DNA of 64,000 nt from Marsupella aquatica (lineage: Eukaryota > Plantae > Marchantiophyta): contig OZ316891.1 of assembly GCA_973895155.1 (NCBI GenBank), positions 15,997,037 through 16,061,036 on the forward strand, read 5' to 3'. Positions within the stretch are counted from its first letter, which is position 1. Each line of letters starts with the position of its first letter. Positions 1 through 26,268 of the stretch are shown here, one piece after another. The notes under the pieces were generated by a model. That model was not told the DNA's origin, made no database searches, and saw only the letters and a list, made by a program, of their open reading frames with translations. A program made the translations under genes and the position numbers.

Positions 1-141
1 AGCAGCGCTCATCAAAAGTCACTGACATAATCAAGCTGGTGGAGAGAAAATACAGAATGCCAATGGAAAATAACACCAGCGCCGGGCGCTAACCAAACTG
101 CACAAAAATCAAGAAATAAATGGACACCAACATCTGTGGCG

Positions 142-2367
142 CTAAACAAAAAGACACCTAAATATCCAAACTAGTGAAGGGAAATACGGAATGCCAATGA
201 AAAATAGAAGAATTTCACGTTTATTCCTGGATCTCGTTGATGGGCTGGTTACTCCAATGTCTACTTTTGCTTTCGCCCGGGGTTTTTGACTCCTGTCTAC
301 ATGCAAAACTTCTGTTTCGCAATGTTTCTGTAGCTCGCTCGCCGAGGCATCTACATCTTCCGATAAACCTTGTTTCATTTCAGAGAGAACTTTCCAAGGG
401 ACTAAAGACTTTGATAATTTCAGAAATGCATCCTTTTCAGCTTCATCGAAAGGGGTGTCCCACTTATCTGTGTCAAGATACCATGGATAGTGGGTTATCT
501 CCCACAATGAAATGTCACGTGGTGGAACGTCCCCTTCGGCAGGGTACATTGAGTAAACTTCGCTAAAAGCATCCCCCTCTAGAACGGACCATTTTTGGAA
601 TGCAGGAGGGTAAGCCCAAAAATACTCTGGAGAACTGGTCTCCATCGCCATGTAGAAGCGATACAGATATCTCTTGGCTCGCTTCTGGTTGCGAATGGTA
701 TAGTCTTCCTTGTCTCCGTACTTGGACTGCCAAATTGTGCTAAAAAACTTTGCCTTCACTGTTTCACCGTATGTCTTGAAATCATTGGTGATGTTCAAGA
801 CCAAAGCTTCAAACGTCTCCACTCCTCCTAGCGTCAGACGATCAGCAGGTAGGATCGACTGGACTTGCGAAAGAGATGTCTGTAACATTGAAATTGCAAT
901 TCCTTCCACCAAACTCCACATGTGCCATGTATGACACCACTGTTTAACAAGGTCATCATTCACACTCGGGGGATGGTAAAATTGTTTTCTGAGCTCGGGT
1001 GTACAGTGAGCAACAAGAAGAGTACAGCGCAGTTGTGGATCCAAGTAGGAGACAGCAGTGAATAGATGCGCGCGGTCCATTGTACATACTACAGAGTCCG
1101 ACTTCTTTTCTCGTTTGTTCCTCTCCGTAAGAATGTACATTTCTGCACAAGTTGACAGAAAATCACCAAACTCTGGGCTTATCAGGGGGTAATCTTGGAT
1201 GTCTTTATGCTCCACTCCTTCGTTGCCTCCTTCATCATGGCAGCATACCGCTTACCAGTCTCTTCAGATGACCACGGGCGACCTTGACTTGTCGCAGCAG
1301 CCAAGTCAAGCTTAAATTGAAGTGAATACGACTTAATCTTGTTTTCACACAAGATGTAAACCAATGCTTCCAATGGCATCTGCTTGGTATACCAAGACCC
1401 CTTTCTTGTTTTGGCACGAACAGTTTGAAATCGCTTGAAGCTTCCGGGGTCGATGATCGGCTTTGTAGGCCTCCAAGTCATGAGTTAAAATCCGATTGAT
1501 TCTATCAGCATCGAGAATCCACAATGGTTCCACCACAGCTTGCCCAAACCTGTAAGGTATAATGGCAAATATTAGTGCCTGGCCGTAACTAACTTTGCAA
1601 AAATCAAGCGCAATCGACCAAATTCAATAGCGTTTATGCAACTTGAGGAATACTTACTGGTTCACCATGTGCATAGCTGCTTCAAGCTCAACTAGAGAAC
1701 CCTGATCTCCCTTAAAAATAGTGCATTGAACACGCGGATGGTACTTGATATTGTCTGGATTCTCATTTGTTACTTGGGTCCACGAGTAGAGTCGATGATT
1801 CCCATCAAAAACACAGAACATCTTATCCTTTAGAATGTGGAAATCTGGATCAGTAGCACATTCTGCTTCAAACAAGTTGTTCTGGGCAACCCAAACAGCA
1901 TCCCATGTCTCCCGAATTTCAGGTGTGCAGAATTGAACGACTCCTTCTGAATCCGTGGGCTGGACGTAAAACCGCATCCCAATTGAAGAGTTGTATCCAG
2001 AGCTCCGAAACGAATCCTTGAGCTTATCGATAGATGCACTATTTTTTTGTAAAGTCCAAACGATTTCCATGTGAACAAGCCGACAAAGAGGGATACGCGG
2101 CGGCTCTTTCTTCTCCCCTCTGAAATCGACTCCAAATGACATTGCGTATTTCTCAATCACAGCATCCATGGACAGGACTCCCTTGCCACCGTCCTCCATC
2201 GCAAAATCTCCGTATGACTCCATGATGCCTCGTTTTGGCTTTGAAATCGACTGACTAATGTTTCGCAAAGAGTTCGACGCAGACGAACGAGTGACTCTCC
2301 GAGTATAAACTGATCCGGAGAATGAGGACTCAGATGTTTCAGAATGGCCAGGAGAATGATTCTCCAT
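142..2367 (-). pseudogene. ParB/Srx-like N-terminal domain protein, spliced and frameshifted
   Basis: Exon 2367-1658 has FCVFDGNHRLYSW (DGxHR-type ParB/Srx motif). A GT-AG intron at 1657-1550 joins it in frame to FGQAVVEPLW. The downstream ORFs 1345-1536, 1182-1481 and 142-1215 overlap in different frames, indicating frameshifts. Confidence 0.6.
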
Positions 2368-3600
2368 GTTTGTTTAAGATGCACACACGGGGAACCCGCA
2401 CCTCAACGTGCTTCTTGCGTGATGCAATGTTTCTTGTGGTGTTGTACCGATATGGACGAATGATTGACAACGATCCTAAATGTGCGCAGAGGTCGTTCTA
2501 ACGATCAAGGAAGACACTATCACAAGAAGATCTTATCTGATATACCCTGTGGCAGACCGACATGTATCACAAGTACACATCGAAAAGCATGAGCATCCAA
2601 AAGCAGACCTACTAAAGGTTGACACTTGTCACATTTTAACTAGTTTATAGGTACTCATGAATATATTTATCCAGGAATTCGTTATAAATTGTAACGATAA
2701 ACGGTCAAAGTTACCGTTTAAAAACACTGTTTATGTCAGTATTCTACTTCGATCTAATATTAGCGCCTGGCGCTATTATTATGCTAGACTAAAATATATC
2801 TTAAAATGAAGGATTTTAATAATAGCGCCTGGCGCTAGTAACATTGTACTAAAAAATCATGCGAATGATTGGACTGAAGCGAGAAAGATTTTGTAATAAA
2901 CGGCTTCTATTTCTATAAAGAATATGAAAGTGCCAGGCGCTATTTTTTTTTTAGTCTCAAATAGGGAAAAAATGTGTAGATTTCAATAATAGCGCCCGGC
3001 GCTAGTAACGAGACACCTCAAAATGGTAGATGTTTGGACACGAAATGTGTAAGTTTCTATAAATAATGTACGAGTACATCTTGACATTTTAAAGAAATTT
3101 TATGATAGCGCCTGGCGCTATTATTGTGATAGCTTCTACTCGATCTCAAATGGATCGATTTTAATATAAGTAGAGGGTAATATTGTCGTCTGACATAAAT
3201 AAGGGGCTATTTCCATGGAAACCCGATATATTTCCAAGGAAACCCGAAACCTGTCGTAGAATGTTAACCTGTGTCAGTAACCAAAATGGCCGATGATCTT
3301 TGCTTTTGTTGTTCATTTTTTGGGCTCTTTCAGATGTGGAAAACGCTAGCGCCTGGCGCTACTATATTACCCCTTTGGTTACAATGTCAAAACCATTAAT
3401 TCTCCAGTAACTATCCGCCAAATATATGGTTTTGTCGTTTCTTGAACGGTAAGAAAATCCGTACCCAACGGATCCTATAACCGCTCGATGGCTCTTTCCG
3501 TTTGAGACTTGGATTTAGAAGAAACCCTCAACCATCCAAACTAGTTTCATTTTACAATGTATCATTATTTTATGTAGTCGGTTATCTTTGGGGAGTTAGA

Positions 3601-6600
3601 ATGTCTCGCATTATTGGAATAATGTGTCCGAATATAGGTGACGTTGTGACGATCCCTGTGTCGATTTCCAAAACCAAGAAACGTGTTAGTCATAATTACC
3701 TGTGTGGAAGATTTGGGGTGACGAGAAAACATATTTTGAGTATCAGAACTTTGAACGATGGGCCCGCTCATTTTGATACTGAAGCGGAGGACGTTGTTTG
3801 GAATCTCGAATATGGCGTGGAGTACTTGATTTTCATTCAACTAAGGGACATCGTTTATGTCAAGGTGGAGACGCATCAGGTTGCTCACGATGTGATTGAC
3901 CTTACGTCCGACGCTAAATGCTCTGAGGGTTCTCCACCAATCTCAAAGGGCGGTGAGGTCAATAAGGAGGGCGAAAGTACCAGTTTGTTGACGCCCCAGG
4001 TACTCCCCGTATTGATTGCGTCAGAGAAGTCTGATGATGGAGACACTCTAACTCGTCCTGTTCTGGTTGTGTACAGAAGAAGCGCACTTGATGCCTTGTT
4101 GAAGTCAACTGGACAAAGTGAGTTATCGCGCTTTGTTAGGTCTGAGGCATTCATTCACAAACAGGTTGAATGCTTACCTATAGAGTACAATGGGAATACC
4201 ATATTTGAGCTTCCACTTGTTGAAGGTGTTGGCTCGAAAGGGGATCGTCTACGAAACATGGATCGATGCAAGGACTGCTACCTCTAGACTAGAATCCTTC
4301 CTACTTCTGCTAATGTCGTTCCAAAGAAGATGTGGGAGTTTGGGAAAGTAAGCTGTAGTGGTTCTCTTGAATGCCGAAATAGAGCATGTGAGTTTTACAC
4401 CAGGACTCAAGTCAGAAACTGTAATGGATGGGATGGGACCCCCAAGCTCTCTGGTCAGCATTGTCCTGGGAGGTTTATCGATGCTGGAGGAATTGTTTGT
4501 CGCTATTGCCTTCAAGTTCCATTTTGTGTTGAGTCTTGTCCAGCAAAACTGTTTTATATGTACCCGCAAGTTTTGATCGAAAATGACACTGCAAAACACA
4601 TGTCACGACTTGCAATCCATATGGGAGTGCACAACCATCCATGTCGGAAGGTCTGGTCTAGAAGTGCTAAGAAAACAGCAATAGAAGAAATACGGAGACA
4701 ACATGAGAAGTCTCCTTCTACACCGTGCGTTTTGAAAAATGAGATCACTGGATCTTTAATGGATGCCGTAGGTGAGTCTATGGATGACATTTCAAAGCTA
4801 GAAGAATCAGAAATCTGGAAATCACTTATGCTCATTTCAACGCCTCAGAAGTTTTCTGCGTTATTTAAGAGCATTCGCAAAGATCAGGTTGGTCGAGGTG
4901 ATTTGGAATATCTGGTTTGCATGCAGAAGAATGTTACGTTTCCTTTTCTCCAAAGATATCTTCTTCCTGGGCAGGGCTGTAAAGGTGATAGAGCGCATAT
5001 TTTCAAAATGACTATCAAAGGTCATGGATCAGGAGTAGATTTACTGCGTCAGATGAAGAAAGGGGGGCCTCTAGAAGGAGCATGGGTGAGCTTTGACGTG
5101 ATGAAAAGGATGTCGAAAGAATGGAGTACTTTTAGTGCACATGTGTATGACCATAACTATCGAGCTTTGTGCACAATATTTACTTGTGAACTCAAAGCAG
5201 AGGACACTGCATCGCTTGAGAAAGCTTGGAGGTTGATGATCGAAGTCGCTTTGGAGAACGGTTTAAACGGTGTGGAAATCCATGGTTTCATGGCGGATAA
5301 CGCTCAGGCGGGATGGATAGCGGTTAGGAATGTCTTCTTTGACGGCCATCCAAACCCGGAGAGAGAGCGATCGGATGCATTCCACTTTTATCAGTCTTTG
5401 CATCGGCACTCTATCGAAGGAGTACTTGACAAAAAACGTGTTGAACATCGAATCCTTTGGGACAAACTGTTGCGGAATGCCGCTTCATTTGTGGAAGCCT
5501 ACAGGGTATCACGAGAGATTGATTCATGGTGGAGATCTGGAAATTGTATTCCTGGGAAACTTAGAATGTTGCAAGGATGGATCGCTTGGTGGGTTGTGAG
5601 GTGGCGTCAGTGGGGAAATTTCATACGTTTGGTGAGTCAATGTATACTAGCGCCTGGCGCTAGTATTAATATCCCTTTTCTAATTGTGATATTTACTGAT
5701 GTTTTTGCCAGCGTCTGGCGCTAACGTACGAATAGCTTGATAGCTTCTTCAATCTTCACAATAATCATGAAAACATTCATACCTTTCGTCCGCCCATTTT
5801 GAAGTTCCGCTTTATTTTTTATTCGCTATATTGTACTGAATTTGACAAAACTCTTTTTCAGAGCAAAAGTGCACTTGAAGGGGGGATGATTCCCAATTGC
5901 ACTGGTTCTGAAGCTGTTCACGGAATCATGAAAGCATGGCAGGGAAAGAAAACAGTTGGTTTGTTCGAAGGATGTAAGACCGATCACAACAGAGCAATCT
6001 CACAAATAGCAGCCTATACAGCATATCGTGAAGGGCTCCATCGGGGTACCGGTCCAACAGTGTTTGAATTGGCTTTTCGTTTGGCTGACCAAGCAGGGTC
6101 CCCGAAACTCTTCGAAGAAGCCTCTAATATGTTACTCGCAAATGCAGCAAAATTTGATTTGGAGAGGGATTCTCCATTGAATGGGGATTTTGTGACGAAG
6201 TCTATGAAAAGAAAAGGTCCGGCGACCAGGAATGTCTCTCCACAAGACTCCCATCGACATGACACGGTTCTCATAACTACGCCAAACACCCGAGGTTGCA
6301 AGAGGAGAAATTTGACCTCAGCCGAGTTTGAGCACATTCTGATACTTAGAACTCCTCCTTCGAATCCAGCTATCGATTTGTCTGAAAGTGGCTCTCCAGT
6401 TTCCCATCATGTCACTCAATCTTCCGAAGTTCCAGAAAGTGTTCCAAACACCACTCCATTCATTCCTGTAGACACTTCGCTTTTTGAAGTGGATGTTGTA
6501 CCCGGGTCGTGGCATTTGCGGAGAGTTTCCAGACACGGTGCTGGACCTCAGTGTAATGGGACGTTGTTTGGAAGTTGTGATCAAGATGAGTGTTGTAATC

Positions 6601-7355
6601 GAATTAAGAAGGTCGGATATCCTTCAAATGCAGGGGTTGTCGGAATAGTCGTCAAAGGTTACCGCTTATTTAGAGGTGAACACCATCCAGAGCTTGTCTG
6701 GTTCTGCCCCACTCGTGATTGCTGGAAGAGCCGCCCTCGTCAAGGTATTGTGAACCTCCCTACTTGCCCAGACTTTTTGCCAGTACAGAAAGGCACTCGT
6801 CTTTCAAGTCTGGAGTTGAATTTCCTTCACGAGCAGGGAATTGAAGTCTCGAGAGGAGGTGCTATTTCACGTTGTCCTTCTCCATTTGAACTGAGAATCA
6901 ACATTGACGTTTTCCCTGAAAAGATCGATCTTGCACAAGTCAACATCCATTTTCAAACAAGAAACGGGCGTGCGATGATCTCCAGATCAAATCTCACTCA
7001 GGAATATCATAAAAGGATTGAATCAGCAACGAAAAAAACAATGACTTTGATCAAAACTATGGAAGTTTCATCAGGAAATTCATACGGAAAACAATTCCAG
7101 ATACGCACACATGCACATTTACGAACTGCAAATACTTATTCGGTGCAGATTTGCATTTTCCCTTGTTGCTCTTGTGAAGATTTCTTTCGTCGACATTCTC
7201 GAGGGAAACCTTTCATGCCATGTAAACACTTGTACTGGGTTTACAAAGTTATCTGCAAGCTTGATCCTGTGGACAATATCCTCCCAAGCCAACCGATTCT
7301 TACCATTGCGGAACTGCGTTATATTCTAGCGAGGCAGAATGCTGATGGTTTATAG
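3601..7355 (+). pseudogene. MULE-type DDE transposase with N-terminal WRKY/GCM-like Zn domain and C-terminal SWIM finger; 2 exons, one premature stop
   Basis: ORFs 3502-4287 and 4330-5724 are in one frame across a TAG at 4285. A phase-0 GT-AG intron at 5632-5861 joins the 5799-7355 frame. Motifs: C-rich...GVHNHP, WVSFD, FMADNA, DAFH, TGSEAVHG, and CSCEDF-x-CKHL (SWIM). Confidence 0.8.
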
Positions 7356-8168
7356 GAAGGCTTAGTATTCTTGTTTACGTTCAACGGGTATGTTGGACTT
7401 GTCGTTTTGTAACGGTAACCTTGTTTTGGTTAGCGCCCGGTGCTAGTAAACAACATTTGGTTTCTTTTCAACACGGCTCAATGTTTTGTGGGTTGCACAA
7501 AAAACTAAATTTGTTTTTACAATTTTACGGATGTGTAAATTTCATTGTACGGGTCACTTGGACTTCAATTTTGTCACTTGGACTTCAGTTTTGTTAGCGC
7601 CCGGCGCTAGACTTCATTTCCTTACTTGGTTTCAGTTTGTAGTTTCCAGGTCTGAACGTGTGGATTTCTTTCGCATGCATTTTCGAGGATGACCTTTTCT
7701 TGCCTTAGAAACCGTTATCCTCTGATCATTCCGGTAGATGTTGAGCGGGTATTTTGTTAATGATATTTTGTAACGGTATCGAACGCTTGGTTAGGACTAA
7801 GCGCTAGTAAAGGCATCTTCCGATAATTGTCGTTTTCCCCATCTTTTTGAGTTGATGTTGAATTTGACCTCTTTGGTTTGGGTCAAAATTAAGCCGTTTT
7901 TTGTCAATGATAGTACAAATTCTCTTGTTTTGTTCAACTATTTTTCCTGTTATGATCATCACTGTTTCCTGTTTCTTGTCACGGAGGTCGGGCCCTCCTA
8001 AAACTAGAAGTTGACGCGACCTCCTCCACTTAGACACCTGTAAATGAACAATTCGATTCTCATATTATGCAATTGCAAACAACCACGCGACCGGGCGCGT
8101 CACTCCCAAAATATAAAGTTCAATTTCAATCAATTTATAAATAATAATTGATAATAAACAATAAACGT

Positions 8169-8939
8169 TTACTTATTGGACTTATCCCGGGCTTCTATAG
8201 CACGGTCTTTTTCGGCAAATAAGTATTTCATAAATTCGTCAAACTTTTCTAAATGGTCTTTATTCCCCTGATTACGAATGATCACATTTCTCCTCCAATG
8301 ATTCATCTTATCAATATAATCTCTCTCAAGATTTTCTTGAGAGAACGTTGGAATCCCATATCCACTAAGGAGCTCGTGGAATGTCAACTTGTCAATTGAC
8401 ATGTCGCATAGATATGGATATAGTTTCTTTCTAAAAAATAGGTCATCATCGAGCCCAGAATATGCATCGGGATACAACGATGAATAGAAGTCATTAAGGC
8501 TCGTCTTATACGCAGCATCATCGATAAGAATGACATTCTCGATGTTGTAATCTTTAATATCGGCGGCAATGTTGGAGAGACATTTGACAAATAAGGGGAT
8601 GTCATTATTATTCTTTCCAATAAGTTGAGTTGATTCTTGTCCCCATATAAATTTAATACGTTTCAAAACTTCGGGTCGAAGTATCAGCCTTACACAAGAT
8701 AGAATATTCCGTTTGAACATGCACGACCAGATCGCAATATCGTATAGATCTGCCACCTTCTCAAGAAATTCCATGAAATCAGGCCTTGGATAGATAACCT
8801 TGTGCATCTGTCTCACACCCCATGACCGAATGGGCATCCCAGGGCTGATCTTCTCTGACCAGATAAGTACCCGATTCAGATTGAAAATTACAAGTCTCTT
8901 TTGAACCGGTGACTTCTTTGCCGATGGATCAGGCGCCAT
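8169..8939 (-). CDS. FCP1/NIF-family HAD phosphatase-like domain (C-terminal part of the giant gene)
   Basis: KRLVIFNLNRVL (degenerate DxDxT/DLNG motif I), YPRPDFMEFL, YDIAIWS, FIWGQE, FVKCL, NVILIDDA. Confidence 0.8.
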   Translation of the reverse strand: MAPDPSAKKSPVQKRLVIFNLNRVLIWSEKISPGMPIRSWGVRQMHKVIYPRPDFMEFLEKVADLYDIAIWSCMFKRNILSCVRLILRPEVLKRIKFIWGQESTQLIGKNNNDIPLFVKCLSNIAADIKDYNIENVILIDDAAYKTSLNDFYSSLYPDAYSGLDDDLFFRKKLYPYLCDMSIDKLTFHELLSGYGIPTFSQENLERDYIDKMNHWRRNVIIRNQGNKDHLEKFDEFMKYLFAEKDRAIEARDKSNK

Positions 8940-9160
8940 CTATACCTGTGATGTTTGTGCCGCAGGGTTTGGAGAACATACTAGAACGATCTGTTTGTTT
9001 CCCACCTCCGAACGGTCACCGGACTTCCGGACTGGTGCCTTCGATACTCGATCAGGGGGTTTCAGGATAGGCTTCTGTAAAACATTAAGAAATGAAAATA
9101 AGTTTATAACGCGAACAGTCACGTGACTACAAAGAGAGACACTGAAATGAAGTGTATTAC

Positions 9161-9949
9161 CTGTACAAGACGGTTATTTAGTGTTGGAATTCTGCCAGAA
9201 ATGTCAATCATAGCAGCACGGATCCCGGTAACTAGGTTACTTAGGGACGTCGGCTTGCGGAAGTCCATGTCAAATAACGACAAGACTATCTCCCTACGGA
9301 ATTTCTCAATTTGATCCGCGGCAAAATTAATTTTGTTTCCTTGACACAAGCACTTGGCGTATCTCAAGATAAACACACCACAACTGTGGCCGTCACTCTG
9401 GTGAGGAATATCATTCCGATATATCCGTTCCCAACCTAAGAGATCCAAGTTGACACCAGTTCTCCAGCCAATTTCGTCGGCGTAGTACTTCCCAACAATA
9501 TCTAACACCCCAGGATTTTGTTGATTATGAACTAGAGAATCTAGGTACTCGAGCCGTTTCTCCTTCGGATACACAACTACCAATGACCAATGTTCTTTCA
9601 CAGCATTGTGTACTGGAAAGACCAGTTTGTCGTATTCACTGATTTTTAGCGGAAACTCCTTTGTCCAAGCTGCTCTCTCCTCATCGAAAATGGTAGGATC
9701 CATGGAGAGAAGCTCAAAATGGTGTGTTTGGAAGAATTTGACAAGGTCTGACTTTCCAACTCTATCGAGAATCAGTTCGAGAAAACTCAAATAAGCGTTA
9801 ATTATATCATCGGTGAGCAACTCGCGCTGTCTCAGACACATCATATGTTTCCTCTTGATCGAGTGTTGTAAGAACTTGGTCAATAGCTCTTCCATATCCT
9901 TAGAAGGATCAAGGCATTGATCTATTCGACTAGCCAAATTTTCAAAAAA
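9161..9949 (-). CDS. ULP1/SENP SUMO-protease (peptidase C48) domain exon
   Basis: LTDDIINAYL, VFPVH...EHWSLVV, YLDSL, PHQSDGHSCGVF; the His-Asp-Cys triad and oxyanion Gln are intact. Confidence 0.92.
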
Positions 9950-10974
9950 CTGCAAAAAACAGAGATTTCAGTACGCCTTCAAATAACGTACTGAGGTTGT
10001 AGCCTAAGGGTTCTACCTCAGAAAACAGAAACAATAACAAATCAATAATAAAATAATGACGTCTATAATAGAAACTTTAAGCTTATAGCTTGCAAATGAC
10101 CTTTGGATTGGGTGGATCCGGCCTTTTCGCAGCTGATCTCTTGGGTGCCTCAATCGCAACAACATCCTTCAGCCCTCCTCGAGACCACAGTGATCGCTCC
10201 ACCGGACCAGTTTGTGAAGTTTGGAGCGATGAGGCGGGAAGACCTTCAAATGGTTGTGGCATTTGATTCAAATATTCCACAATCTGGGAATCCGATTCCA
10301 AAATATCCGGTGCCACAATTTCTGCGTGAGTGACCTCTGCAATATATCGGGGTCGAGACCACAAACCCGGTCGCGTCAAGTCAGCTATTAGTCTCTTAAC
10401 GACTTGAGCCGAGTCTGGTGCCAAAGACGTTCCCAGGTCTTGCACTCGATTCTCGGAAAAGCGAACATTATTGATGATTGTCTCCATTCTGGATGCAATG
10501 GCAGTCTTCTCCTCGGTAATCAAAAGACCCTTCCAATATTGCAAAGCAAGGACTGCTTGGACTCGGAGCTGCTCCGGTGAATATTTATTCCAATCATCCA
10601 ACAAGACCATACTTAAGGGTGGATCGTTAAATTCAAACTCCGGGCGAAGAAAATAGTCTAATATTTTCTTCTTAACTACAACTGAGGGTGAAGGAAGAAG
10701 GCTTCTTCAAATTCAGCTTTGTTTTCGATAGACGTTGTGCCTCAGGAATAAGCAAAAGATCCTTGGCCCTCTCGGCCTCCTTCCTCGTTGCCTCCAGTCT
10801 TGCGGCTTCTTCTCTCTCCAGTCTTGCGGAATTGACCTTTTCCGCCTCCAACTTCTCCGCCTCCACCCTCTCCGGTCTTGCGGTCTCGTCCGCCATCCTC
10901 TCGGCCAGTAGCCTCTCAGCCGCCACACTCTCCGCCTTGGCCCTATTTGCCTGTCGCTAAAAGGACTCTCGCAG

Positions 10975-11440
10975 CCTCCACTTTCTCAGCCTGGGCTTTC
11001 TCAGCCTCCGCGTTCTCAGCCTTCGCTTTCTTGGCCTCCGCTTCCTCCGCCTCCGCTTTCTCAGCCTGGGCTTTCTCCGCCTCCGCTTTCTCAGCTTGGG
11101 CTTTCTCAGCCTCGGCTTTCTCAGTCTGGGCTTTCTCAGCCTCCGCTTTCTCAGCCTCGGCTTTCTCCACCTCCGCTTTCTCATCCTGGGCTTTCTCAGC
11201 CTTGGCTTTCTCCGCCTGGGCTTTCTCACCCTAGGCTTTCTCAGCCTGCGCTTTCTCAGCCTCGGCTTTCTCAGCCTCGGCTTTCTCAGCCTCGGCTTTC
11301 TCAGCCTCGGCTTTCTCCGCCTGGGCTTTCTCACCCTGGGCTTTCTCAGCCTGCGCTTTCTCAGCCTGGGCATTCTCAGCCTGGGATTTCTCAGCCTCGG
11401 CTTTCTCAGTCTAGGCTTTCTCAGCCTCGGCTTTCTCCTT
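10975..11440 (-). repeat. 15-bp coding tandem repeat (AEKAE/AEKAQ)n, coiled coil
   Basis: About 30 units of GCTTTCTCAGCCT(C/G)G on the + strand, adjacent to QEEAAR repeats and a D/E-rich tract. Confidence 0.9.
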
Positions 11441-12420
11441 CTTCTTTGCGGCAGTTGCTTTTCTAGCTGCCGCCTTTTTCTTCTTAGCCTCCTTCTTTTG
11501 AAGCTCCTCTTGCCGGGCCGCCTCTTGTCGGGATGCCTCCTCCTGCCGGGCCGCCTCCTTCTTTTGAAGCTCCTCTTGCCGGGCCGCCTCCTGCTGGGCC
11601 TCCTCCATCCGGGCCTCCTCCTGCCGGGCCGCCTCCTCTCTGGCCTCCTCCTGCCGGGCCACCTCCTCTTGGTCCACCTCATGTTGAGGCTCCTGTGTGG
11701 CCTCTTCATCAGAGTCCTCAGCGTCCTCAGAACCCTCCATCTCCTCGTCCTCTTCATCAGCGTCCTCAGCGTCCTTCATCTCCTCTTCGTCACTCTCTTC
11801 ATCTCCTCTATTGTCGGAATCTTCAACGTTGTTCTACGTATCGGTCATCCACTCTAGATCTTGGTCATTGACATCCCCATCCACGTCACCTTCCGCGTCA
11901 CCTTCCCCCTCACCATCCGCATCACCATTGCTCCCTGCATCCTCAACATCGAAGCCGCAGTCAACTTGATCTGAATAAAATCAGATCATTTGATAAGAAT
12001 GACTCACGCGCATATTCGCGTGAAAAGAAATGTTAAGAATGTCCACGCGCATGTTTGCGTGACGCAATAAAAAGTAAGAGGTTTCAAAAGTAACCTACCT
12101 TGGATTGGCCCACTAGGGTACTCCGTTGGTTGAATGTACAATCGATCAGAATCTTTAGAGAGTGCATACTCTTGCAATAATTGATTACAAATATTATCAG
12201 GGATATGTTATTCGCGGAGGACATCCAAAACATCAGCCCTGAGAGCAGTTACGGATGGACGGTACTTCATTAATTTATCTATACATTTTTCTATACTAGC
12301 CCGTACTGGGTCAATCAATGACAGCGTTGTATCAATTGTCGTCGTGGTATGTTGCAAGAAACAAGACAACTCCCTATGCGTTGTCACAGGGCAATAATAT
12401 TTTACATTGGATCCAGCATC

Positions 12421-13060
12421 CTGTAAAAAAAGCCGAAATTAGTTCACAATATTAATTGAGAATATAATAATCTAAATAATCTTAAAATCGAAACCCCAAA
12501 ATATAAATCTCAAAACTTACCATTAAGCACTGGATCAAGTTCGTTCCCTCACCAAAGCATATAGCCCATTCCCCACATTGGACAAATTGACTAACAATAC
12601 TTTCAAAGAATGGAAGTATCTTTTCTGGGGAAGGTGTCGTGAACTCGCCGCTCTCTTCAAAATTGGCTATCTTCTCAATCCGATATTTGGAGACCAATTG
12701 GAACTCGAGGGCTTGTGGATCGCCCATTGTGCTGAAGGCCAAGCTGTGAAAAGCGTAGGTTACAATAAGCTTCTTCTCCTTCGGCCGCTTCTGAATATAA
12801 TGGCTATCGACAGCAACGTAGTGTGTGTACTTCCCTAATTCCCGTTTGATTAAGTAAGACTCAATGGGAGAGGCTACAATAATAACCACATGGTGTGGTT
12901 TTGCCCCTATCTCGCTAGTAGCACGAAATAACCCCTCATAGAATGAGCAATTTGGCGGACGCAAATCTTCCATTGATGAGGGATCAAAATAAATCAAGCT
13001 TGCAAGGTTCTTGTCTTCACGTATGATACAGTCTGCAAACCCAGCATTTTGTATATCCTA
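12421..13060 (-). CDS. Degenerate beta-class N4C/N6A DNA methyltransferase-like domain (part of the giant gene)
   Basis: ASLIYFDPSS (compare DLIxTDPPY), GAKPHHVVII (compare LKPGGxxxI), and EKILPFFESIVSQFVQCGEWAICFGEGTNLIQCLM|DAGSNV (compare EKPxxLxxxxIxxxSxxGDxVLDPFxGSGTTxxAAxxLGR), in the beta-class motif order. Confidence 0.45.
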
Positions 13061-15285
13061 CAGGGATCGCAATTTCAGCCTCTCACCGACCGGCCGCACT
13101 AGTTGGTTTCCTTGACTATCAACTGATTTCTGTATTCCTTCCACCAACCTGTAGAATATCGGGTCGATCTCTTTCAACAAATTATCATTACTAATATTTA
13201 TATTTAAGCACTTCTTCAGATAACCACTCAACGCATCTCTCAACTGCTTCAGCACCATCTTGTCAAGCTTAAAGCGATCAATCATTCCTTTGACCCGCAA
13301 TTTCCGTGCTGAATCTGTCAGACTTTTCAGCTCCGTTCGGGTGGATGTATCCCCGTTGAGTTTACTCAATAATAAAATCTCAAACTCAACTTTCATCTTC
13401 TTCTTTATACAGAATTGCTCCAAACTCATGCTGGTCGTTGACAACACTGGAGCCTCAGAGGACTTCCTCGCCTTCCCAGATTTCACTTTGATGCTTTGGT
13501 TTTTGAGTATAGACAGTCTTCCGCTCAACATATATTCCGCTGCCTTTCGAAGAACCGAGTCTGAGCACCCTTGACAAGAACGGAACGTCTTCTTCAAAAG
13601 ATGATAAGCACATGGATTATCCACAATTTTGACGGCGCCCCTCTGTAAAATTCCGTTGTAAATTACAAGCTCTCCTATCCTTGATAGTACGTAGACCTCC
13701 ATCCACTTCTTGAATGTTTCGTCCTCCATTGTAAAGAGAAACGGAGCCAATTCTCCAAATTTCATCATTTCGTTCTTCCCCATTTGAGCCCATGGGCAAA
13801 CAAAACTCGTAGCTCTCATAAATACCTGAAAAACAATGGAAACATGACAATTCTAAGATTGACGCGACCGTTCGCGTGAGAAAAATTATAAGCTTGACGC
13901 GATCGTTCGTGTGACAAAAGTTTAAACGATAATGTGATCGAAGAGGGTTATTTATATACCTTCCAATTTGGATGACGATAATGTGATCCAGGCCGCCCAA
14001 ATGAGTTCCAGATATTACGACACTGTCGTACAATGGTGAGAAACTGTCCTTCTTCCATTGATGTTTGATGACAGTGGTTCAGAGCTTTCGATAATCCCAT
14101 CAAATGAACATTATTGTCGTTGTTGAGCGTTGCCCAAAACATTACAGCTTCTACAGTACCGCAAGTGTCTCGTCCAACTTGGCTGACTTTGTCGTCCTCT
14201 TTCAGCAATTTGTACGCCATTATTGTGTGCTAGCCTCCGAGTATCCAAAAATGACTGGTCATAATGTCCTCCTCCTTTGGCGCCGAATCGTAGGGTGCCC
14301 CATTGTAGTCGGGATCTCTGTCGGCCTCCGACTGAACCCACTTCACAGGGACTAAAAAGCAGCATCGCTTTTCAAACTTTATAGCCGAATGAGAGAGGAG
14401 TGAATTCTTTAGCCTATCTGTGTAATCCTGGTTCCACTCTCGGCACTTGATGTGGTCCGGTGCAAGATGACAACGTGATGTCTCAACAAAAAATGACTTG
14501 CTGTTAAATATATTCACAACATTATATTCTTTGAGGAAAGAATCGAACAGAGCCCTGACATTCGCTGAGGTAATTACTTTCGGAAGATTCTCCACCGAGT
14601 ATACTTCAACCTTGGTCACTGGCGGGGCCTTTCCCAAGCGAAATCCCTGGTTGAAAGGAACTCTCTGGAACTCAAGTACATCAATAATGTATTGACAAAT
14701 CAAATCTCCCGTTGATCCCTCTGGATCGGAAGGGTATCCCACACTAGTAACCTTTTCCAAGGCGTGCCTTGCACCTAGAAGATCATCGATTCTGGGCTGA
14801 TTGAAGGTTACATATTGCGTTCGATCCAAACAAATGCTTATTTTGTCCTCCTACTGGTCGTCGCTGACTAGCAGAACCAATCCCTCTGTACACTCTTTAA
14901 CTTTCATGCTCTTCTCAAAGAAACACCCAAGAATTTGTGATCTCTCCAAAACTGTAGCTTTATCATTTTTTGCCACCACAAGACGGACAGCCCCATTGCG
15001 AACAACTATTCCAAAATTGGATATCTCAGTCGATTCAAAGAGATGGATACTCTTTGTCTCCGTTGTTCTCTCTTTGATTGACTTTCCTCGATATGCAAGT
15101 ATGGATGTCTCCGCGGGAGTCATTTTTGTCTTGGCTTTCTTACGAGAAGCAGCTTAAGACGAGTTTTTTTCCCGCTTTGAAGTTCCAGTAGGATCCATTC
15201 TGAAACAGACAAATATTGAAAGTTAAATGTTTATTATAAAATACTAACACACGCATGGTCGTGTCATGCCGAATTACATTTTAGG

Positions 15286-17297
15286 ATGGCAGTGGTGTTC
15301 CCCATGGATCAAAAAGCAGTACGATCCTTCTTGGGCTGTGTAGGGTATTACCGTCAGTTCATTAAAGATTTTGCTAAAATAGCTTTGCCCCTAACAGAGA
15401 TGATGAAAAAGGATGCGGTGATCGAGGAGACCCCAAGGAGACGGGTTGCTTTCGAAGAACTCCGTAAAAGACTCACCACCGCACCTATCATGGTCACTCC
15501 AGACTGGAACAAGGAGTTCCACGTGTATGTCGACGTGTCAGGGTTTTGTATCGGGTTTGTGCTTAGTCAGCTTGATACAGACGGACGCGATCACCCCATC
15601 TACTTCGCTAGCCGACAATTATTCACAGCCGAAAAAAATTATTCCCCCACGGATCGAGAGGCACTGGGCATAATCTACTCATGTAAGAAGTTCCGGCACT
15701 ACCTGCTTGGCTACAAGGTCATCTTCCACACGGATCACGATAGCTTGAAGTACATGGTCAACAAAGCAGACGTAACGGGACGGATAGCCCGTTGCTACTT
15801 CTCCAGGAATTTAACTACAAAGTTCGGGTTCGGCCAGGAAAGGCACACCTCAATGCCGACTTCTTTTCACGGCTGGACGGTGTACCAGTCGATCAGCCAA
15901 TTGATGATATTTTTCCGGATAAGGAGTTGTTCCACGTAGGGGAGGGGACACCAACATGGTATGGCTCGATAATCACCTTCCTTTTAACAGGCTGCATCCC
16001 TAACGACATCAATCAGGAGGCCGCCGCTGTGTTTCTACGGAAAGCCGGGCCTTACGTCATGGTACAGGGTCACCTACATAAGGAAGGAGTTAATGGGAAG
16101 TTACGACGCTGCTTGGAGTATAAGGAGACGCTTATCGTGATGCGGGCCTTGCATGAAGAAGAAGCTGGAGGCCATTTTGCGGCGGTCACGACAGCTCGAA
16201 AGATTCTGGACTCGGGGTATTGGTGGCCAACGTTGCATCGGGATGTACAACGCTTCATTAAGGGCTGTGACCTGTGTCAGCGGGCTGGGGCCCCGAGACG
16301 GGCTCATCATCACCCGCTCACATCTGTGCTCCCATTGGCACCCTTCAAAAAATGGGGAATTGATTATATCGGGCCATTTACTCCCGTTACCCAAAGGCGA
16401 AGATGCAGGTACATCCTACTAGCTATTGATTACTCCACCAAGTGGGTCGAAGCACGGGCTACGGTAAAGGACGATGCCGCAACCAGTGCCAGATTCTTAT
16501 ATGAACAGATTTTCACCCGATTCGGCCCGCCCTTAGAATTGGTAAGCGACCGTGGAACCCACTTCCTCAATGACACCGTAGCCCAGCTTACGGAGCATTA
16601 CCTAGTCAAGCACCGCAAGACTACCCTGTATCATCCTAAAGCCAACGGGATGGCGGAGAGGGCAAATGGTATCATTGGGAAGATCCTCAACAGAACTGTA
16701 GCTGCGCACAAAACGGATTGGGATGATAAGTTGTACGCAGTGGTGTACTCGTATAATCTCGCTTACAAAACTACTACGAGTCACAGCCTGTACTTTCTCG
16801 TGTTCGGCCAACATTCGTTAGTGCCCGTTGAGTTTGAAGTACACACTCCACGAGTCAGCATTCGGGGTCGCTTACCTGAATCTGAAAGTTCGTCAGACCG
16901 AGCTTATCAGATTGAAGCCTTGGAAGAAGCACGGCTACTAGCAGCTCGACATGCCGTGAAGAAACAGGCAACTTCGAAGAAGCAGCACGACAAAGGACTA
17001 CGGAGGGTCGACGTCGTGGCAGGCGATCTAGTCCTTCTGTACGATAGTAGGTACATGCAGTTTCTAGGGAAGCTTCATACCCGGTGGTTAGGGCCCTTCC
17101 TTGTCAATCAGATCTACCGTAACGGATCTTTGGAGCTTGCGACGTATGCCGGCAATTTACTCCCCACGCGAATCAGCTACGATCGTGTAAAAAAGTACCA
17201 CCATCAAGATGACGCCGCCGAGAGTGATGTTCGCGAGGACGCTTCACAATTAAGCGGGGAGCTATGTGACGCCGCCGGTACGGCGGTTAATGAGTGA
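15286..17297 (+). pseudogene. Gypsy pol fragment (RNase H + integrase), frameshift near 15795
   Basis: VRSFLG..GYYR, VYVDVS, YSPTDREALGI, HTDH; HHCC finger (H..GGH..CDLCQ), KWGIDYIGP, SDRGTHF, PKANGMAER, WLGPF. Confidence 0.93.
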
Positions 17298-17621
17298 TTC
17301 GGTCTAACTGCGCTTGGCACGCGCGTTAGGAGTGTCTTAGACCGCTATTATTAGCATAATGACAGTATTTAGGTAATCATTATGGGTAGGATATCATTAG
17401 GCAATAAGGGGGGATTCAGGTTCGGACTGGCGGTTGGTCGCTATTCGCACACCCGGGTTACGAGCGTGGAGGGGCCCCTCCCTCGGGCCCGTATAACGAA
17501 CTTAAGGAAGCGGCCACTGACACGCGCTGACTTAGACCGGCGGAGTGGCCGGCACACCACAAGCGTGAGCGGTTCAGCCTATGGGCGTCGAGGAGACGTC
17601 GGGGGATCGACAAGCCCTCAA

Positions 17622-17632
17622 GGTATAAAAGG
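17622..17632 (+). promoter_or_regulatory. LTR TATA box
   Basis: GGTATAAAAGG, conserved as GGATATAAAAGG near 31780 in copy 2, about 110 bp upstream of the conserved ATG. Confidence 0.55.
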
Positions 17633-17731
17633 GGAGCCAACCCTTTGTAGTGCACCAGTCCATCAGTCCACGCGCCAGCTTCGACCCCAGCTCTCTCGTT
17701 CGCTCTAAGTCGCCACTACTATCTCCCCTGA

Positions 17732-20367
17732 ATGTCGCACATGATCCTCTCCAGCTCGGCCATTCAATTATGGACGCAGTTCCTATCTACCGGAAGGCAC
17801 TTGGCCGACTCATTGAAACACGCCAACCCGCGCCGATACGAAATCGAACGCGAGTACGAGAGACCCATCCGCCTAGCAGGACGACACCACTACATCCTTA
17901 ACTTTGACTACCCGTCTCAGAGCGAGCTTTACCAACCTGCAGAGGTATCCGGGTACTTCTTCAACGGAGACAAATATATCGGGTTCTGGGAAGCATTGCT
18001 TCGGCTTCCGGATGAGGTCTTCAATATCCCGGGTACGATCGACTTGCAGCGACATCACTTCGACCACATCCCTGCTCAGGTTCGGGCTATCATCAACAGT
18101 GAGTCCAGCACTACCCGTTCGACAAGGTCGTCTGCACTCACTTCGGAGAACTTCTACCAGCACCTACAGAGTTTCATAGTAACTCGGCCAGCAACCAACA
18201 TGACCAACTCAGTCGTACCCGTACCCGTACCCATACAACCTCAGGCTCAGCTTCAGCTTCAGCCTCAGCCGCAGCCTAGCCAAACCCCACCACCGATCGC
18301 CCAGCCAGCACAAGTACGCTCCGTCATCAACGTTGTGGATCTTAGCGATGACGACGAGGCTACCCTACCCTTGACCAGGCGGCCCAGAGGAGCAAGCGCT
18401 TAGGGGGCCAACACTATATCGTCCCCACCCCCTGCTCTGACCCCAGGAGCGGCCCCGGCAGACAACATGGTGACCGTGGCCGACCCGGGCCCGTTACGAA
18501 CGGCAGTGGCACTACCCAGGCCCGATCGGGAGGATGGGGAGGTGTCACCTTCCCCGAGCCAGTCACGGGGGAAGAAGAGGAAGGAATCCGCCACTGCATC
18601 CGGGTTACCGTTGGCCACGGTAGCCTGGCCAAGGTGACGATGCACCGCATGGGGGAAAACGTTCACAAAAACATCCTCCATCCCAAGCATGCGGTGTACC
18701 TAAAGACTCAGGGATTCGAGCACCTCGCCTCCCTCCCCTGGAACACTTGCAGGTACTACAGGGAGGACATGACGGAGTTCGTCAGGAATTATGACGACAC
18801 GCGTCAACATACTCGGCTGCGGGGAAGGAGTATGTCCCTCACGGAAGAACGGCTCAGGATGATCTTCGGGTTACCCGAAGGTGACCATCGAGTTGAATCA
18901 CGGGCTCCCGTGGGCAAGGGAGCCAAGTACCAATCTTCAAGTTTTCCCTCAGAGGGAGCAGTGGACAACGGGTTCGTGATGAAGACCTGCCTCATCCCCG
19001 AGATAGCTGAGCGACTGCAGTTCCAGAGGTACGCCCTCCACATGATGGAACCCCGGGGAGAGATCTCCGCCGCCCAGGTTATCCAGGTCGAGAACTATCG
19101 ACCTAGGAGGTGGGCGTCGTACTTCGCTAAGAAATTCCATGAAGAGATGGAGCGGCGAAGGAAGACGCTGTACATTGGCAGGAAGGCGTATTTTGCTAGC
19201 CACATCGAGATCATTCTTGAGTGGTATGCCCGGTTTGATCGACGAACCCTTCCCCGTGTCAACGTTACAAAACTGGTCCCAGCTAGGTGGGTTTTCCCGG
19301 CCTTGGAGAGGCGGCCCCAACCCGAGGCCCGAAGTCCAGCGAACACGCCAGCTTCACTCACCCCACCTCCACAAGTAGCTGTAGTTGTAACCGAGGAGGT
19401 ACCGGATGGGTCGGGCGTCGCAACCGTTGATGCGACCCCACAGGCCGGGCTAAGTACCGAAGTCGGTACGGTGGAGGTCTTACCCGAACCCGGTTCTCCT
19501 AAAGACCCACCGGTGGCTATTCCCGAGAACCGGACATTGCTACAGGAGGACGCTCCAGCCCCTTCCAACATTACGTCCCCAGGGCTGGACGTCACTGCCC
19601 CAGCCCCCGCGCGTGTTGACGTCTGCCCATGCCCAACTCCGGACAGATACAACTTGGACCACCCGGAACTCTTCGTACCGGGTACATTTCTGAACGGGCT
19701 TCTGGGAGAATTCTCTCATCAGATTGCCCGGGATACCGGGGAGTTCATGGCCCGGAAGGTAGCCTATTTCTTCAATCAGGAGTTGGTTGCCGTAGTAAAG
19801 GCAGGTCGGGCCCAGTCAAAGGCCCTTCAGAGGATAGAGCGATACCGGGTGGAGTCCGTGTACCTAAAGAACAAAGTTGCGGCTCAAGAGGCTGAGCTTC
19901 GGCAACTACGACCCAAGGTTGCAGCCGCCGATGAGCTGTTAGCAAAGGTGCACGCTCTTACCGCCCTAGCCGAACAGGCCAAAGCTAGGAACGAGGCCGA
20001 GATTACACGACTCAGGAACCAGATTGATAGTTTGAAGAATCAAACTGTCACCTGGCAGAAAGACCTGGAGGAGGCCGAGGAACGGGCCCAATAGGACACG
20101 GCGGAGATAGCCACGCTGTAGGCCGAGGTGGCGCGGCTCCAAACCGAGGCCGAGAAGCAGGACCAGCTGGCGGGTAAATTGACAAGTGACGCCCAGCAGC
20201 TGGAGGAGGCTTGTCAGGAGGCAGCAGAGGAGACAGACGCGGCGAGGCAAGAGAACAAATCTCTGCTGAACCAGGTCCAGCTCCTCAAGGCGGACAATGA
20301 CAGGCTTCGAAGGCAGCGGGATGGCCGCTCCCATTCGGGCGGCTCTGGCAAGCGTGCTAGGCATTAG
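17732..20367 (+). pseudogene. LTR-embedded protein of about 870 aa: plant transposon protein/PMD-like domain, Pro-rich linker, C-terminal coiled coil
   Basis: One reading frame broken by TAG codons at 18401, 20092 and 20119 and a 1-nt deletion near 18624 (intact in copy 2). Motif GFEHLASLPW...EFVRNY...LRGRSMSLTEERLRMIFGLP. Confidence 0.75.
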
Positions 20368-21329
20368 CAGCAGAGTAGGAATAGATTAGGATTAGGACGG
20401 GCTTAGTCAGGCTCTTGGGACAGGCACCTGCCTTAGGTACAGCAGCGCTGCCGTGTTGTCCAGCCTGCGTAGATTAGGATCTTCTAATAAGACACAGCCG
20501 TTTTCCGGCCTGACTATCAGCTTAGTTAGGACCTTAGTCAGCGAATCTTCGGCGAGAGGACACCCCATCCCTCGTCCCTTAGTATTTAGTGCACCCCTCG
20601 GTAGAGGCCCACGGGGTTTTTAGTTGCAAAGTTGGGCGTCCGCGGTATGTGCGGGGAGTCCCGACCTCTAGGAATGAAAGAGTACCAAGGGGAGGGGGTA
20701 GGACTAAGCTCGCCGGGCGAGTGTGGAGCCGGGCTCCATTGTAGTGTGCACCATCGGCCTTGAACCTGTTCATTCCGGGGCTGTCGGGTCAACTAAGTGT
20801 ACGCATATGTTCCCTTTGCAGTAAAATCCTTTCCCATCATTTTCCTTTGTGTAAATCGAGATTGTATGCATGTGCGCATGTATGTGTGTGGGTTTCTCGT
20901 ATATGGGTGGCAGCGCCAGGCCGAACGCACTACCCGAGACGTGCACAGGGTGCAGCCTGCGGGTAAGTGGTTGCGAGCACGGGTTGAGGACCTGTATCAT
21001 CAAATCCGGATTGAAGGCGGATAGCACGAAGGCTTAGAAGCCCTTAAGCCAGGGTCGATCCTGTTATCAACTAAGATACGTTCCGGCGGCGGAACACAAA
21101 CCATACCTAGGAGGTGTCCATATTTAGCAGTATGCGCACTTAGCGCTAGTTTACGAGAGTAAGGTGCATTACGTGCTTCCCTTCCTGCCCGAACCACCAG
21201 ATTTACGAGGGATGTGACCGTCTAAGCTGAAGTCTGAGTTAAGGCCGCAGCCGATGACGTGACAATAAACAATTCTTTGAGAGACTGTGATTTTTTGGGG
21301 TCACAACGTGACAAATCATAAATGTTGCT

Positions 21330-21820
21330 TCGTCCTCTAATAGAACCAGTCAATTAAAGAGCTACCTCAAACGCGACTGGTCGCGTCAACTGATCCTAAA
21401 TGGAACGGTACCTCCTCTAACAAAACCAATCAATGAGAGATCTACCTCAGACGCGACTGGTCGCGTCAACTGATCCTAAATGAAACCTTACCTCCTCTAA
21501 CAGAACTAGTCAATGAGAGATCTACCTCAGACGTGACTAGTCGCGTTAACTGGTCCTAAAAGGAACCTTACCTCCTCTAACAGAACCAGTCAATGAGAGA
21601 GCTACCTCAAACGCGACTGGTCGCGTCAACTGAACCTAAACAACTATATCCACTGAACCTTCCTTGTGGAGATTTGGATATGGTACGCGCTTAGTAAATC
21701 TATCCAGTTTCCTTCTCACACGCGACTGGTCGCGTCAACTGGTCCTAAAAGGAACCTTACCTCCTCTAACAGAACCAGTCAGTGAGAGAGCTACCTCAGA
21801 CGCAACTGGTCGCGTCAACA
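21330..21820. repeat. 80-bp tandem repeat, each unit carrying palindrome B
   Basis: Palindrome recurs at 21371, 21451, 21531 and 21611 (period 80), then at 21720 and 21800. Confidence 0.92.
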
Positions 21821-22926
21821 GCTCAAACAACTTTTGGACACTAGGATAATACAGTGATACAACTGTGATTACTGACCCGAACGGACAAGGAAATCCGAGT
21901 AAGCATGATTTCATTCATTTGTATTCATTCATGAACTTTACAATAATTCAGATGTTTGAGCTCTGTCATTGTGAAACTATTATATATCAGAAGTTTAGAG
22001 AATGATTCAGCTAAGATGATTCAATTTAGCAGTCTACTGGTTGTATTCATCAATTAAAGGATTCAGTGTAATGAGATTCACATAACATGAGAGTTTATAT
22101 GATTAAATTCACAGCGTGCAAGTTTGTAATGACTTACTTAAGACGATTCAGGTTGTATTTTAATTAGTGAGTTTGTATGATTCAGACATATTTGAGTTTA
22201 TAGACAAACCGCATTATGAAAACTCAGCTTAACAATCAAGAGAAATTTTAGCAAACAACAATCAACACCAGCAGAAAATGTAGAAATTGCACCTGAATTC
22301 TGAAAAATTGATGTAATCGTCTGAGAGATTGACGTCCAAGCACTTGAAGACCTTGCTGCGGCATTCCAGAAAGTAAATATAAGATTGAAGATATTAATAT
22401 GCTAAGCAACAACAACACAACTTCTATACTTCTATACATAGAGCTTCGCTGCCACCAATTGAATAACATGTGCTTAATGCTAAGGAACTCATTATGTCGA
22501 GTTAGAAAGACTCTTTCAAAAGTACAATCAAAGCTGTCGATAGACAAACTGAGCATGAATAAAAGCGCACTAAACCTGAAGATTGAAAGAGGTGAAACAA
22601 ACCTGAATGATGAATGGAAGGAGCTTAAACAAGCTGCCAAAAAGTAGTTTGAGTTGCTGAAACACGTTGATCGAGCTGATATGAGCTTAAAATTGGCTGA
22701 CACGAGCTGATACGAGCACTCCCAAAAAACTAGCTGCAACGAACCCAACGGGCTCCTAAGAATCCCTTCGAGCAAACTAGAAGTGAATACGAGCTGTAAA
22801 TGCAAGCTGCAATGCGCCAACAAGCTCCTGGTCGAAACGATCGACAACTACTAAGAGCTGCAACGCGCCGACAAGCACCTGACCACAACGAACGAGCTGC
22901 AACAACAAAAATGAAATCCAGGGCAG

Positions 22927-23200
22927 GAGCGAGAGTGAGAGCGACAAGAGCGAGAGCGAGAGCGACAAGAGCGAGAGCGACAAGAGCGAGAGCGACAAGA
23001 GCGAGAGCGACAAGAGCGAGAGCGACAAGAGCGAGAGCGACAAGAGCGAGAGCGACAAGAGCGAGAGCGACAAGAGCGAGAGCGACAAGAGCGAGAGCGA
23101 CGAGAGCAAGAGTGAGAGTGACAAGAGCGAGAGCGACGAGAGCAAGAGTGAGAGTGACAAGAGCGAGAGTGATAAGAGCGAGAGCGAGAGCGACGAGAGC
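22927..23200. repeat. 15-bp tandem repeat (GCGACAAGAGCGAGA)n
   Basis: About 18 directly visible units. Confidence 0.93.
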
Positions 23201-24245: not shown

Positions 24246-24249
24246 GAGT

Positions 24250-26099: not shown

Positions 26100-26268
26100 T
26101 GTTGAGCATAGACGACATTTGTAACAACAAGCCCATGAACCATCCAACATACAAGAGTCAACACAGAGAGATACGTGGTTCACCTCCACATGAGGCTACG
26201 TCCACAGGAACACACGAGAGTTTTACTATACTCTAGGTCGACAGGCCATACAAGGCATCCATAGCACA

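Follow-up and report, generated by a model that had tools for sequence, protein, structure and literature searches.

A decayed gene of a repeated element in the liverwort Marsupella aquatica may join a dead methyltransferase fold to a SUMO protease

The gene described here lies on the minus strand of the window, a stretch of 64,000 nucleotides (nt) from the liverwort Marsupella aquatica (GCA_973895155.1, contig OZ316891.1, positions 15,997,037 to 16,061,036 of the forward strand), between window positions 15198 and 8169. The model we propose combines a long spliced reading frame, its membership of a repeated family of which the window holds a decayed copy, and a CG-rich palindrome, ACGCG-N6-CGCGT, which is concentrated in the non-coding parts of the gene and its flanks. 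According to this model, which we put forward tentatively as quite possible though short of probable, the gene would be an accessory gene of a DNA transposon, the likely carrier, and its product would read the palindrome via a dead methylase fold and deliver a SUMO protease.

Six-frame translation and junction mapping give a minus-strand model of six exons running from the ATG at 15198 to the TAA at 8169 and totalling 6,431 nt, whose parts are the following.

15199-15265: 5' flank, with a palindrome copy at 15248 and an acceptor-like TTTCAG directly before the ATG
15198-13960, minus strand: exon 1 (413 codons), with a possible PH-like fold followed by the region of the ParB-like motif
13959-13826, minus strand: intron 1, two palindrome copies (13861, 13896)
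13825-12521, minus strand: exon 2 (435 codons), with a helical region ahead of the beta-class amino-methyltransferase fold, which sets in at about residue 240
12988-12974, minus strand: degenerate motif IV, FDPSS
12559-12545, minus strand: motif I-like CFGEG
12520-12421, minus strand: intron 2, no palindrome
12420-12099, minus strand: exon 3 (107 codons), which matches no family
12098-11971, minus strand: intron 3, two palindrome copies (12005, 12044)
11970-10101, minus strand: exon 4; acidic tract, charged 15-nt repeats, two frameshifts, then a globular region
10100-9950, minus strand: intron 4, weak donor; sole link of the front half to ULP1-NIF
9949-9161, minus strand: exon 5, ULP1/C48 protease, no stops
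9160-9075, minus strand: intron 5, one palindrome copy (9108)
9074-8169, minus strand: exon 6; linker with stop 8942 and an ATG after it, then the NIF/HAD domain
7996-8168: 3' flank, with a palindrome copy at 8084; a different inserted element cuts it at 7995/7996
15156, 14853, 14232, 13060, 12210, 11836, 11413, 11233 and 8942, minus strand: internal stops
21333-21819: 80-nt tandem array holding six copies of the ACGCG-N6-CGCGT palindrome

The first-pass annotation, made from the letters alone, had joined fragments into a single long spliced frame, and this frame is real. Over 2,140 codons it meets nine internal stops, where each of the five remaining frames has 63-162. The five introns all run GT..AG, measure 86-151 nt, are AT-richer than the exons and are phase-compatible; none has a length that is a multiple of three, and each would bring in one or two stops if left unspliced. 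Four of the five donors are strong, that of intron 4 (GTCATT, 10100) being weak. The internal stops comprise seven TAG and two TAA codons and no TGA, as expected from the C-to-T decay of Gln codons, and exon 4 carries two frameshifts, near 10950 and near 10690; with both indels mended the family frame encodes 2,142 amino acids. From the reading frame across intron 4 we infer a single transcript. A division into two or three genes, with exons 1-4 set apart from ULP1-NIF or with a NIF gene starting at the ATG directly after stop 8942, would suit the weak intron-4 donor, the position of that ATG and the finding that no homolog bridges these junctions. We consider this division improbable, since exon 4 is open up to its donor and exon 5 from its acceptor with matching phases, since the 151 nt between them offer little room for a terminator and a promoter, and since 44 open codons of exon 6 precede stop 8942, which is a TAG, as are the four stops found as Gln codons elsewhere.

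These Gln codons were found in other copies of the gene, represented by contigs of four public runs aligned at 80% likeness; statements on codons rest on 40 of the 634 rows of differences. Between 40 and 46% of the sampled words are present in the four runs, and the whole gene is covered by 883-2,855 contigs per run. Stops 14853, 14232, 12210 and 11836 are Gln codons in nearly all the contig depth of the four runs; these four stops are hence not conserved in all the copies looked at, and the earlier expectation of a repeated family with open copies is borne out. Most of the depth in all four runs lacks the 4 nt at 10690, and the 2 extra nt at 10950, in the repeat region, occur in a minority of the depth only, about 8-36%. 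With Gln at four of the nine stops and without the 4-nt frameshift in other copies, the window gene is a decayed copy of a repeated gene family, and non-coding flanking DNA is repeated together with it.

The palindrome, in the form SACGCG-N6-CGCGTS, has 17 matches at no more than two mismatches against 1.9 expected, a number reached in none of 100 shuffles, the P values being optimistic because the patterns were derived from the very sites counted. Within the region 7996-15265, seven of the eight matches fall in the 839 non-coding nt of a total of 7,270 nt. Introns 1 and 3 account for two of these matches each, and intron 5 and the two flanks for one each. Other copies fit the consensus at 13910 and 15251, where the window copy deviates from it. 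The first-pass annotation had mentioned neither the intron palindromes nor the possible PH-like N-terminal domain discussed below, and both are added here. Separately, a lone copy with one mismatch to ACGCG-N6-CGCGT lies at 33559-33576, in the second of the two Gypsy-type copies described below, and is probably there by chance.

The candidate reader of this palindrome is encoded by exon 2, which gave no profile match, PF01555 included. Its fold was predicted by AlphaFold on the homolog P0007, 53-54% identical to exon 2, at a predicted local distance difference test (pLDDT) score of 79. Residues 242-448 of P0007 match beta-class DNA amino-methyltransferases (Foldseek, CcrM, E 4e-6), and the comparison with M.MboIIA gives a Z of 12.9 and a root-mean-square deviation of 3.3 over 171 aligned residues; the top 19 rows of structural matches are all beta-class or MT-A70 methyltransferases, and the fold matches include CcrM, PvuII and rotifer N4CMT. 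The methyltransferase-like fold of the first-pass annotation is upheld by these matches to P0007. In the model of this homolog the permuted Rossmann fold is present with motif IV before motif I, as in the beta class (CcrM, M.MboIIA, M.RsrI, M.PvuII) and its MT-A70 relatives; unlike them, the window gene lacks the DPPY motif, is a spliced eukaryotic gene and combines the fold with ULP1 and NIF domains. Ten of the 20 alignment rows cover motif IV, and all ten keep its Asp, whereas none has the PP[YF] that should follow, at positions that vary freely. The G-x-G of the S-adenosylmethionine-binding loop (FxGxG) is found in seven of nine rows and its last Gly in all nine, the preceding acidic residue not being evident by eye. 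With the fold kept and DPPY absent from the alignment, the exon-2 methyltransferase domain is most likely a pseudo-enzyme. An active writer of N6-methyladenine or N4-methylcytosine (6mA/4mC) with an unusual motif, marking the element's own palindromes, would agree with the fold matches to CcrM, PvuII and rotifer N4CMT, with the motif IV Asp of all ten rows and with the seven G-x-G loops in nine. It is the least probable of the explanations considered here and highly unlikely in view of the missing PP[YF], the free variation at its positions and the lack of a PF01555 match; inactive methylase domains are moreover known in DIRS1 elements and METTL14, according to the accessible text of PMC4738411.

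Exon 1 is less clearly defined. The model of its homolog was built from three sequences and has a pLDDT of 38.8, falling below 50 in the region with the ParB-like motif. Likeness to PH folds over residues 45-175 or so (window 15066-14676), with a Z of 4.0-4.9 in nearly all of 50 rows of this low-confidence homolog model, suggests a possible PH-like N-terminal domain; Foldseek returned no match for the model. The ParB-like region announced by the first-pass annotation keeps its motif, GG[Q]H at 14238-14227, and it is from this motif that the putative label derives, since the region has no Pfam, PHROG, NCBIfam or PDB match. The best hhalign result, at 3.8%, aligns GGQH with DGQHR, by a method that also misses the structurally shown methylase; the ParB fold is not listed among the structural matches of the low-confidence exon-1 model. 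Home-made ParB, DGQHR, ParB-methylase and methylase profiles, which are insensitive tests, gave no significant match to exon 1, to exon 2 or to the gene of the left element described below. A ParB-like motif upstream of a methylase in the same chain recalls the order found in 19 bacterial open reading frames (ORFs), which were chosen for holding both ParB_N and N6_N4_Mtase matches; unlike the window protein's motif order, its sequence has no profile similarity to these prokaryotic ParB-methylase fusions.

When exon 2 was run through a full HMMER scan, 23 matches came back, one of which, P0029 (22% identity, repetitive), was dropped as unrelated, leaving 22 related representatives among 1.84 billion. 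Twenty of the matches were looked up; five of these bear a species name, in each case that of the leafy liverwort Calypogeia fissa. Relatives that are 28-54% identical keep the region of the methylase fold open, and stop 13060 is crossed by nine of 13 aligned homolog ORFs. The seven homolog ORFs that extend to the end of exon 2 all have V-S or V-R next, as would be expected from a conserved phase-0 donor of intron 2 read in frame. The exon-1 homolog P0034, 48% identical, ends just beyond the intron-1 donor and has Gln at two of the stops; stop 15156 is crossed by P0034 and P0035, in a part where the alignment is poor. The Calypogeia gene models P0010, P0012 and P0016 connect a sequence resembling the end of exon 1 to exon 2, and for introns 2-5 no bridging homolog was found. 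The metagenome, viral and prokaryotic contigs searched gave no related loci, a phage tblastn search gave no useful match and the ESM Atlas gave none that was usable for two stop-free segments. A likeness of exon 3 to the Calypogeia protein P0026, seen by eye, failed in BLASTP and was dropped.

In exon 4, an acidic tract is accompanied by EAARQ and AEKAE 15-nt tandem repeats, the charged repeat region behind the coiled coil of the first-pass annotation, and these repeats are likely to form one. Exon 5 is, by its sequence, a C48/ULP1 SUMO protease with an intact triad, as had been proposed: it scores 72.6 bits against a Pfam C48 gathering threshold of 20.7 (E 5e-20) and matches SENP2/SENP1 at E 3e-19. 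The His (EHWS, 9595), Asp (YLDS, 9547) and Cys (HSCG, 9388) are present and the oxyanion Gln is in place, the EHWS, YLDS and Q..G.SCG stretches aligning with those of SENP2/SENP1; the Trp before the first ULP1 helix is replaced by Leu. The NIF-family domain of exon 6 is likewise recovered, at 38.8 bits against a gathering threshold of 21.8 (E 1e-9), and its DD motif is present. Its motif I reads NLNRV in the window and DLNRV with the letter that other copies have at 8882, so that in those copies the nucleophile Asp is kept and the second Asp lost. The motif is hence not DxDx(T/V), the second Asp being Asn (DxN) in the other copies too, among the rows of differences listed. Further matches of exon 6 are weak and all far below their cut-offs (HAD-IIID, E 0.002; Dullard-like, 0.006; FCP1, 0.035), the sole PDB lead is UBLCP1 (E 0.013), and no BRCT or UBL match was obtained. 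Compared with the NIF/FCP1 phosphatases of the HAD class, of which UBLCP1 (HAD-IIID) appears to be the nearest, the domain shares the Pfam family, the first Asp (in other copies) and the DD motif, and differs in the Asn and in a match to FCP1 that is weaker than that to HAD-IIID. The phosphatase acting on the C-terminal domain (CTD) of RNA polymerase II that had been suggested is not supported by these weak matches, which lean to UBLCP1/HAD-IIID rather than FCP1. Nor is the description of a multi-enzyme protein supported, the methyltransferase having no catalytic motif in ten of ten sequences and the NIF motif being DxN even in other copies.

The element that carries the gene is cut by insertions on both sides. 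In other copies the sequence on the gene side of 7995/7996, from 7996, is fixed and that beyond 7995 is mixed, which indicates that a different element (1-7995) was inserted into the 3' flank of the gene. This left element contains two divergent genes, a spliced minus-strand gene at about 2373-142, with a DGNHR ParB-like motif and a weak ParB-like PHROG match (E 0.043), and a plus-strand transposase-like gene at 3481-7355. We take the latter, by eye, to be of a MULE/GCM/SWIM type with a SWIM-like finger at its end, a label that library matches leave unconfirmed; the transposase-like ORFs have no Pfam or convincing PDB match. The left element has a palindrome of its own, TAGCGCC-N-GGCGCTA, with 12 matches against 0.04 expected, 11 of them within 1-7995, where they sit in introns, intergenic DNA and 3' flanks. 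It holds no copy of ACGCG-N6-CGCGT at one mismatch or fewer, and at this stringency the two palindrome territories do not overlap; the left element is a second, simpler case of the same motif layout. On the upstream side the gene is bordered by a 5'-truncated Gypsy-type insertion at about 15270-21264, the first of two copies (15270-21264 and 31042-35393) that are 75% alike and hold RNase H and integrase, then extra ORFs downstream of pol. Beyond it, the DNA of 21265-24246, tandem array included, is probably upstream DNA of the same element as the gene, as hinted by the contig depth in run X3 (374-494, against 402-481 over the gene) and by one contig class in which 15 other letters connect a palindrome copy to 21265. 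Within this segment, at 22400-23250 on the plus strand, a decayed coiled-coil-like ORF of gene-like contig depth ends in a 15-nt ERERQ-type tandem array and is possibly a second gene of the element, divergent from the main one. No Rfam families were found in 7000-25000.

Further along the window, long terminal repeat-like sequences at 24247-25372 and 50476-51600 are 93% identical, and near 26100 the minus strand encodes a chromodomain-like peptide, which points to a chromovirus-type element, a label given by eye. At 26269-29881 and 37265-40883 a 3.6-kb unit occurs twice in opposite orientations (81%); its long ORF matches nothing in Pfam. A host-type ceramidase exon lies at 54699-55238 on the minus strand (Pfam E 2e-28).

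A host gene family spread by segmental or tandem duplication, the window copy being a pseudogene, would explain why no transposase is seen in the window and why a host ceramidase exon is found 40 kb off. This explanation is nonetheless very unlikely: homologs are few and scattered, with the 22 representatives mentioned above, the flanking non-coding DNA is repeated along with the gene, the gene is surrounded by mobile elements nested in one another and its stops resemble decay by cytosine deamination.

In the model that we prefer, a non-transposase accessory gene of a large DNA transposon encodes the predicted 2,142-residue protein, whose dead beta-class methyltransferase fold, possibly together with the ParB-like region, would act as the sequence reader of the element's CG-rich palindromes. 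The palindromic site would suit a dimeric reader, the dimer being a prediction, and the charged repeats of exon 4 would serve as a spacer. At the element, the ULP1 domain would free proteins of silencing or repair from SUMO and so loosen the element's silencing, and the NIF domain would be a weak phosphatase or a phosphopeptide-binding module. The outcome would be a family-specific protection of the element, like that given by VANC/KIU to VANDAL transposons, via unrelated domains. No VANC-type domain, which we take to be DUF1985/DUF287, was found, and no Pfam family appeared at E below 0.2 for the exon 1-4 segments scanned; by domain content the window gene is not a VANC/KIU gene, and by analogy it may work like one.

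As described in the accessible text, the binding sites of VANC are family-specific motifs found in the introns, the intergenic DNA and the tandem repeats of VANDAL elements (PMC5735166), whose methylation it lifts (PMC5735166, PMC10398659), while the KIU (Kaonashi) genes are VANC fused to Ulp1, the reason for the capture of Ulp1 being called unknown (PMC13317346). It is to these KIU/VANC genes that the latter text ties Ulp1, instead of to VANB as the first-pass annotation had it. Like the VANC/KIU genes of these Arabidopsis Mutator-like elements (MULEs) without terminal inverted repeats, as the same texts present them, the window gene is a non-transposase gene in a repeated element, with Ulp1 toward the C-terminal side, a short family-specific motif that recurs in its introns, its flanks and a tandem array, and a neighbouring family with a different motif; unlike them, it has a liverwort host, a methyltransferase fold in its front half, a NIF domain after ULP1 and, as its motif, a spaced palindrome of 18-20 bp instead of an asymmetric word of 8-9 bp. 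Ulp1 cargo, inactive DIRS1 methylase domains and prokaryotic ParB-methylase loci are already known (PMC4738411, accessible text). With the Ulp1-bearing Mutator and Ginger1 elements the window gene shares a C48 domain with an intact triad in a repeated element, although Ulp1 is tied there to a transposase or KIU and the accessible text of PMC2836005 mentions no methylase or NIF partner. The domain combination did not turn up in the protein libraries and literature searched. In that full-text literature, which left out subscription papers and supplements (that of PMC4738411 included), no element with this combination and no bryophyte anti-silencing system was found, in keeping with the earlier impression of an undescribed architecture.

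A different role for the same gene has to be weighed, namely that it is transposon cargo whose protein aids transposition or repair by deSUMOylation without sequence specificity, the palindromes being bound by a transposase or a host factor. Ulp1 is common in Mutator and Ginger elements, for which a role in transposition or repair has been proposed (PMC2836005, accessible text), transposases and TnpA bind cognate motifs (10.64898/2026.08.24.746577, accessible text), and the left element, read by eye, couples its palindrome to a transposase-like gene. This cargo role is possible, if on the unlikely side: the motif lies in the introns of the gene, far from known ends, like VANC sites, the effects of TnpA and AtMu1 are described at termini in the text accessible to us, and the methylase fold stays open across the relatives.

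Several points weigh against a palindrome-reading accessory protein. The element's own transposase, not seen in the window, may itself be the binder, as transposases are able to attach to family motifs and relieve silencing (10.64898/2026.08.24.746577, accessible text). The left element, although it carries a palindrome too, gave no methylase-like, ULP1 or NIF match over the parts that were scanned. The palindrome is missing from introns 2 and 4, and its P values are optimistic as said above; the methylase fold is predicted for the homolog P0007, not for the window's own sequence. To the lack of a homolog spanning intron 4 or intron 5 are added two weak negatives, the searches for a long fused exon-1 relative (724-2,065 amino acids) and for exon-6 relatives (165-527 amino acids) having found none. 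Finally, neither a transposase, such as the MULE transposase VANA, nor terminal repeats or a target-site duplication of the gene's element came to light in the window, and the MULE origin raised in the first-pass annotation finds no footing there in a transposase or in element ends.

In conclusion, sequence-specific anti-silencing by transposon proteins has been described in flowering plants, with VANC/KIU and TnpA. Could the DNA transposons of liverworts have evolved an anti-silencing of their own, independent of VANC/TnpA, in which a dead methyltransferase of bacterial restriction-modification type, perhaps with a ParB-like partner domain, reads a CG palindrome that is private to the family and placed in the introns of the element, and brings along a SUMO protease together with a phosphatase-like module? 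We hold this wider proposal to be doubtful; a motif and a binder, both as predicted, are available. If it were true, it would reveal a convergence on a layout of private intron motif and Ulp1, built here from a dead bacterial-type methylase, and would offer a direct test of the repeated capture of Ulp1 by transposons.

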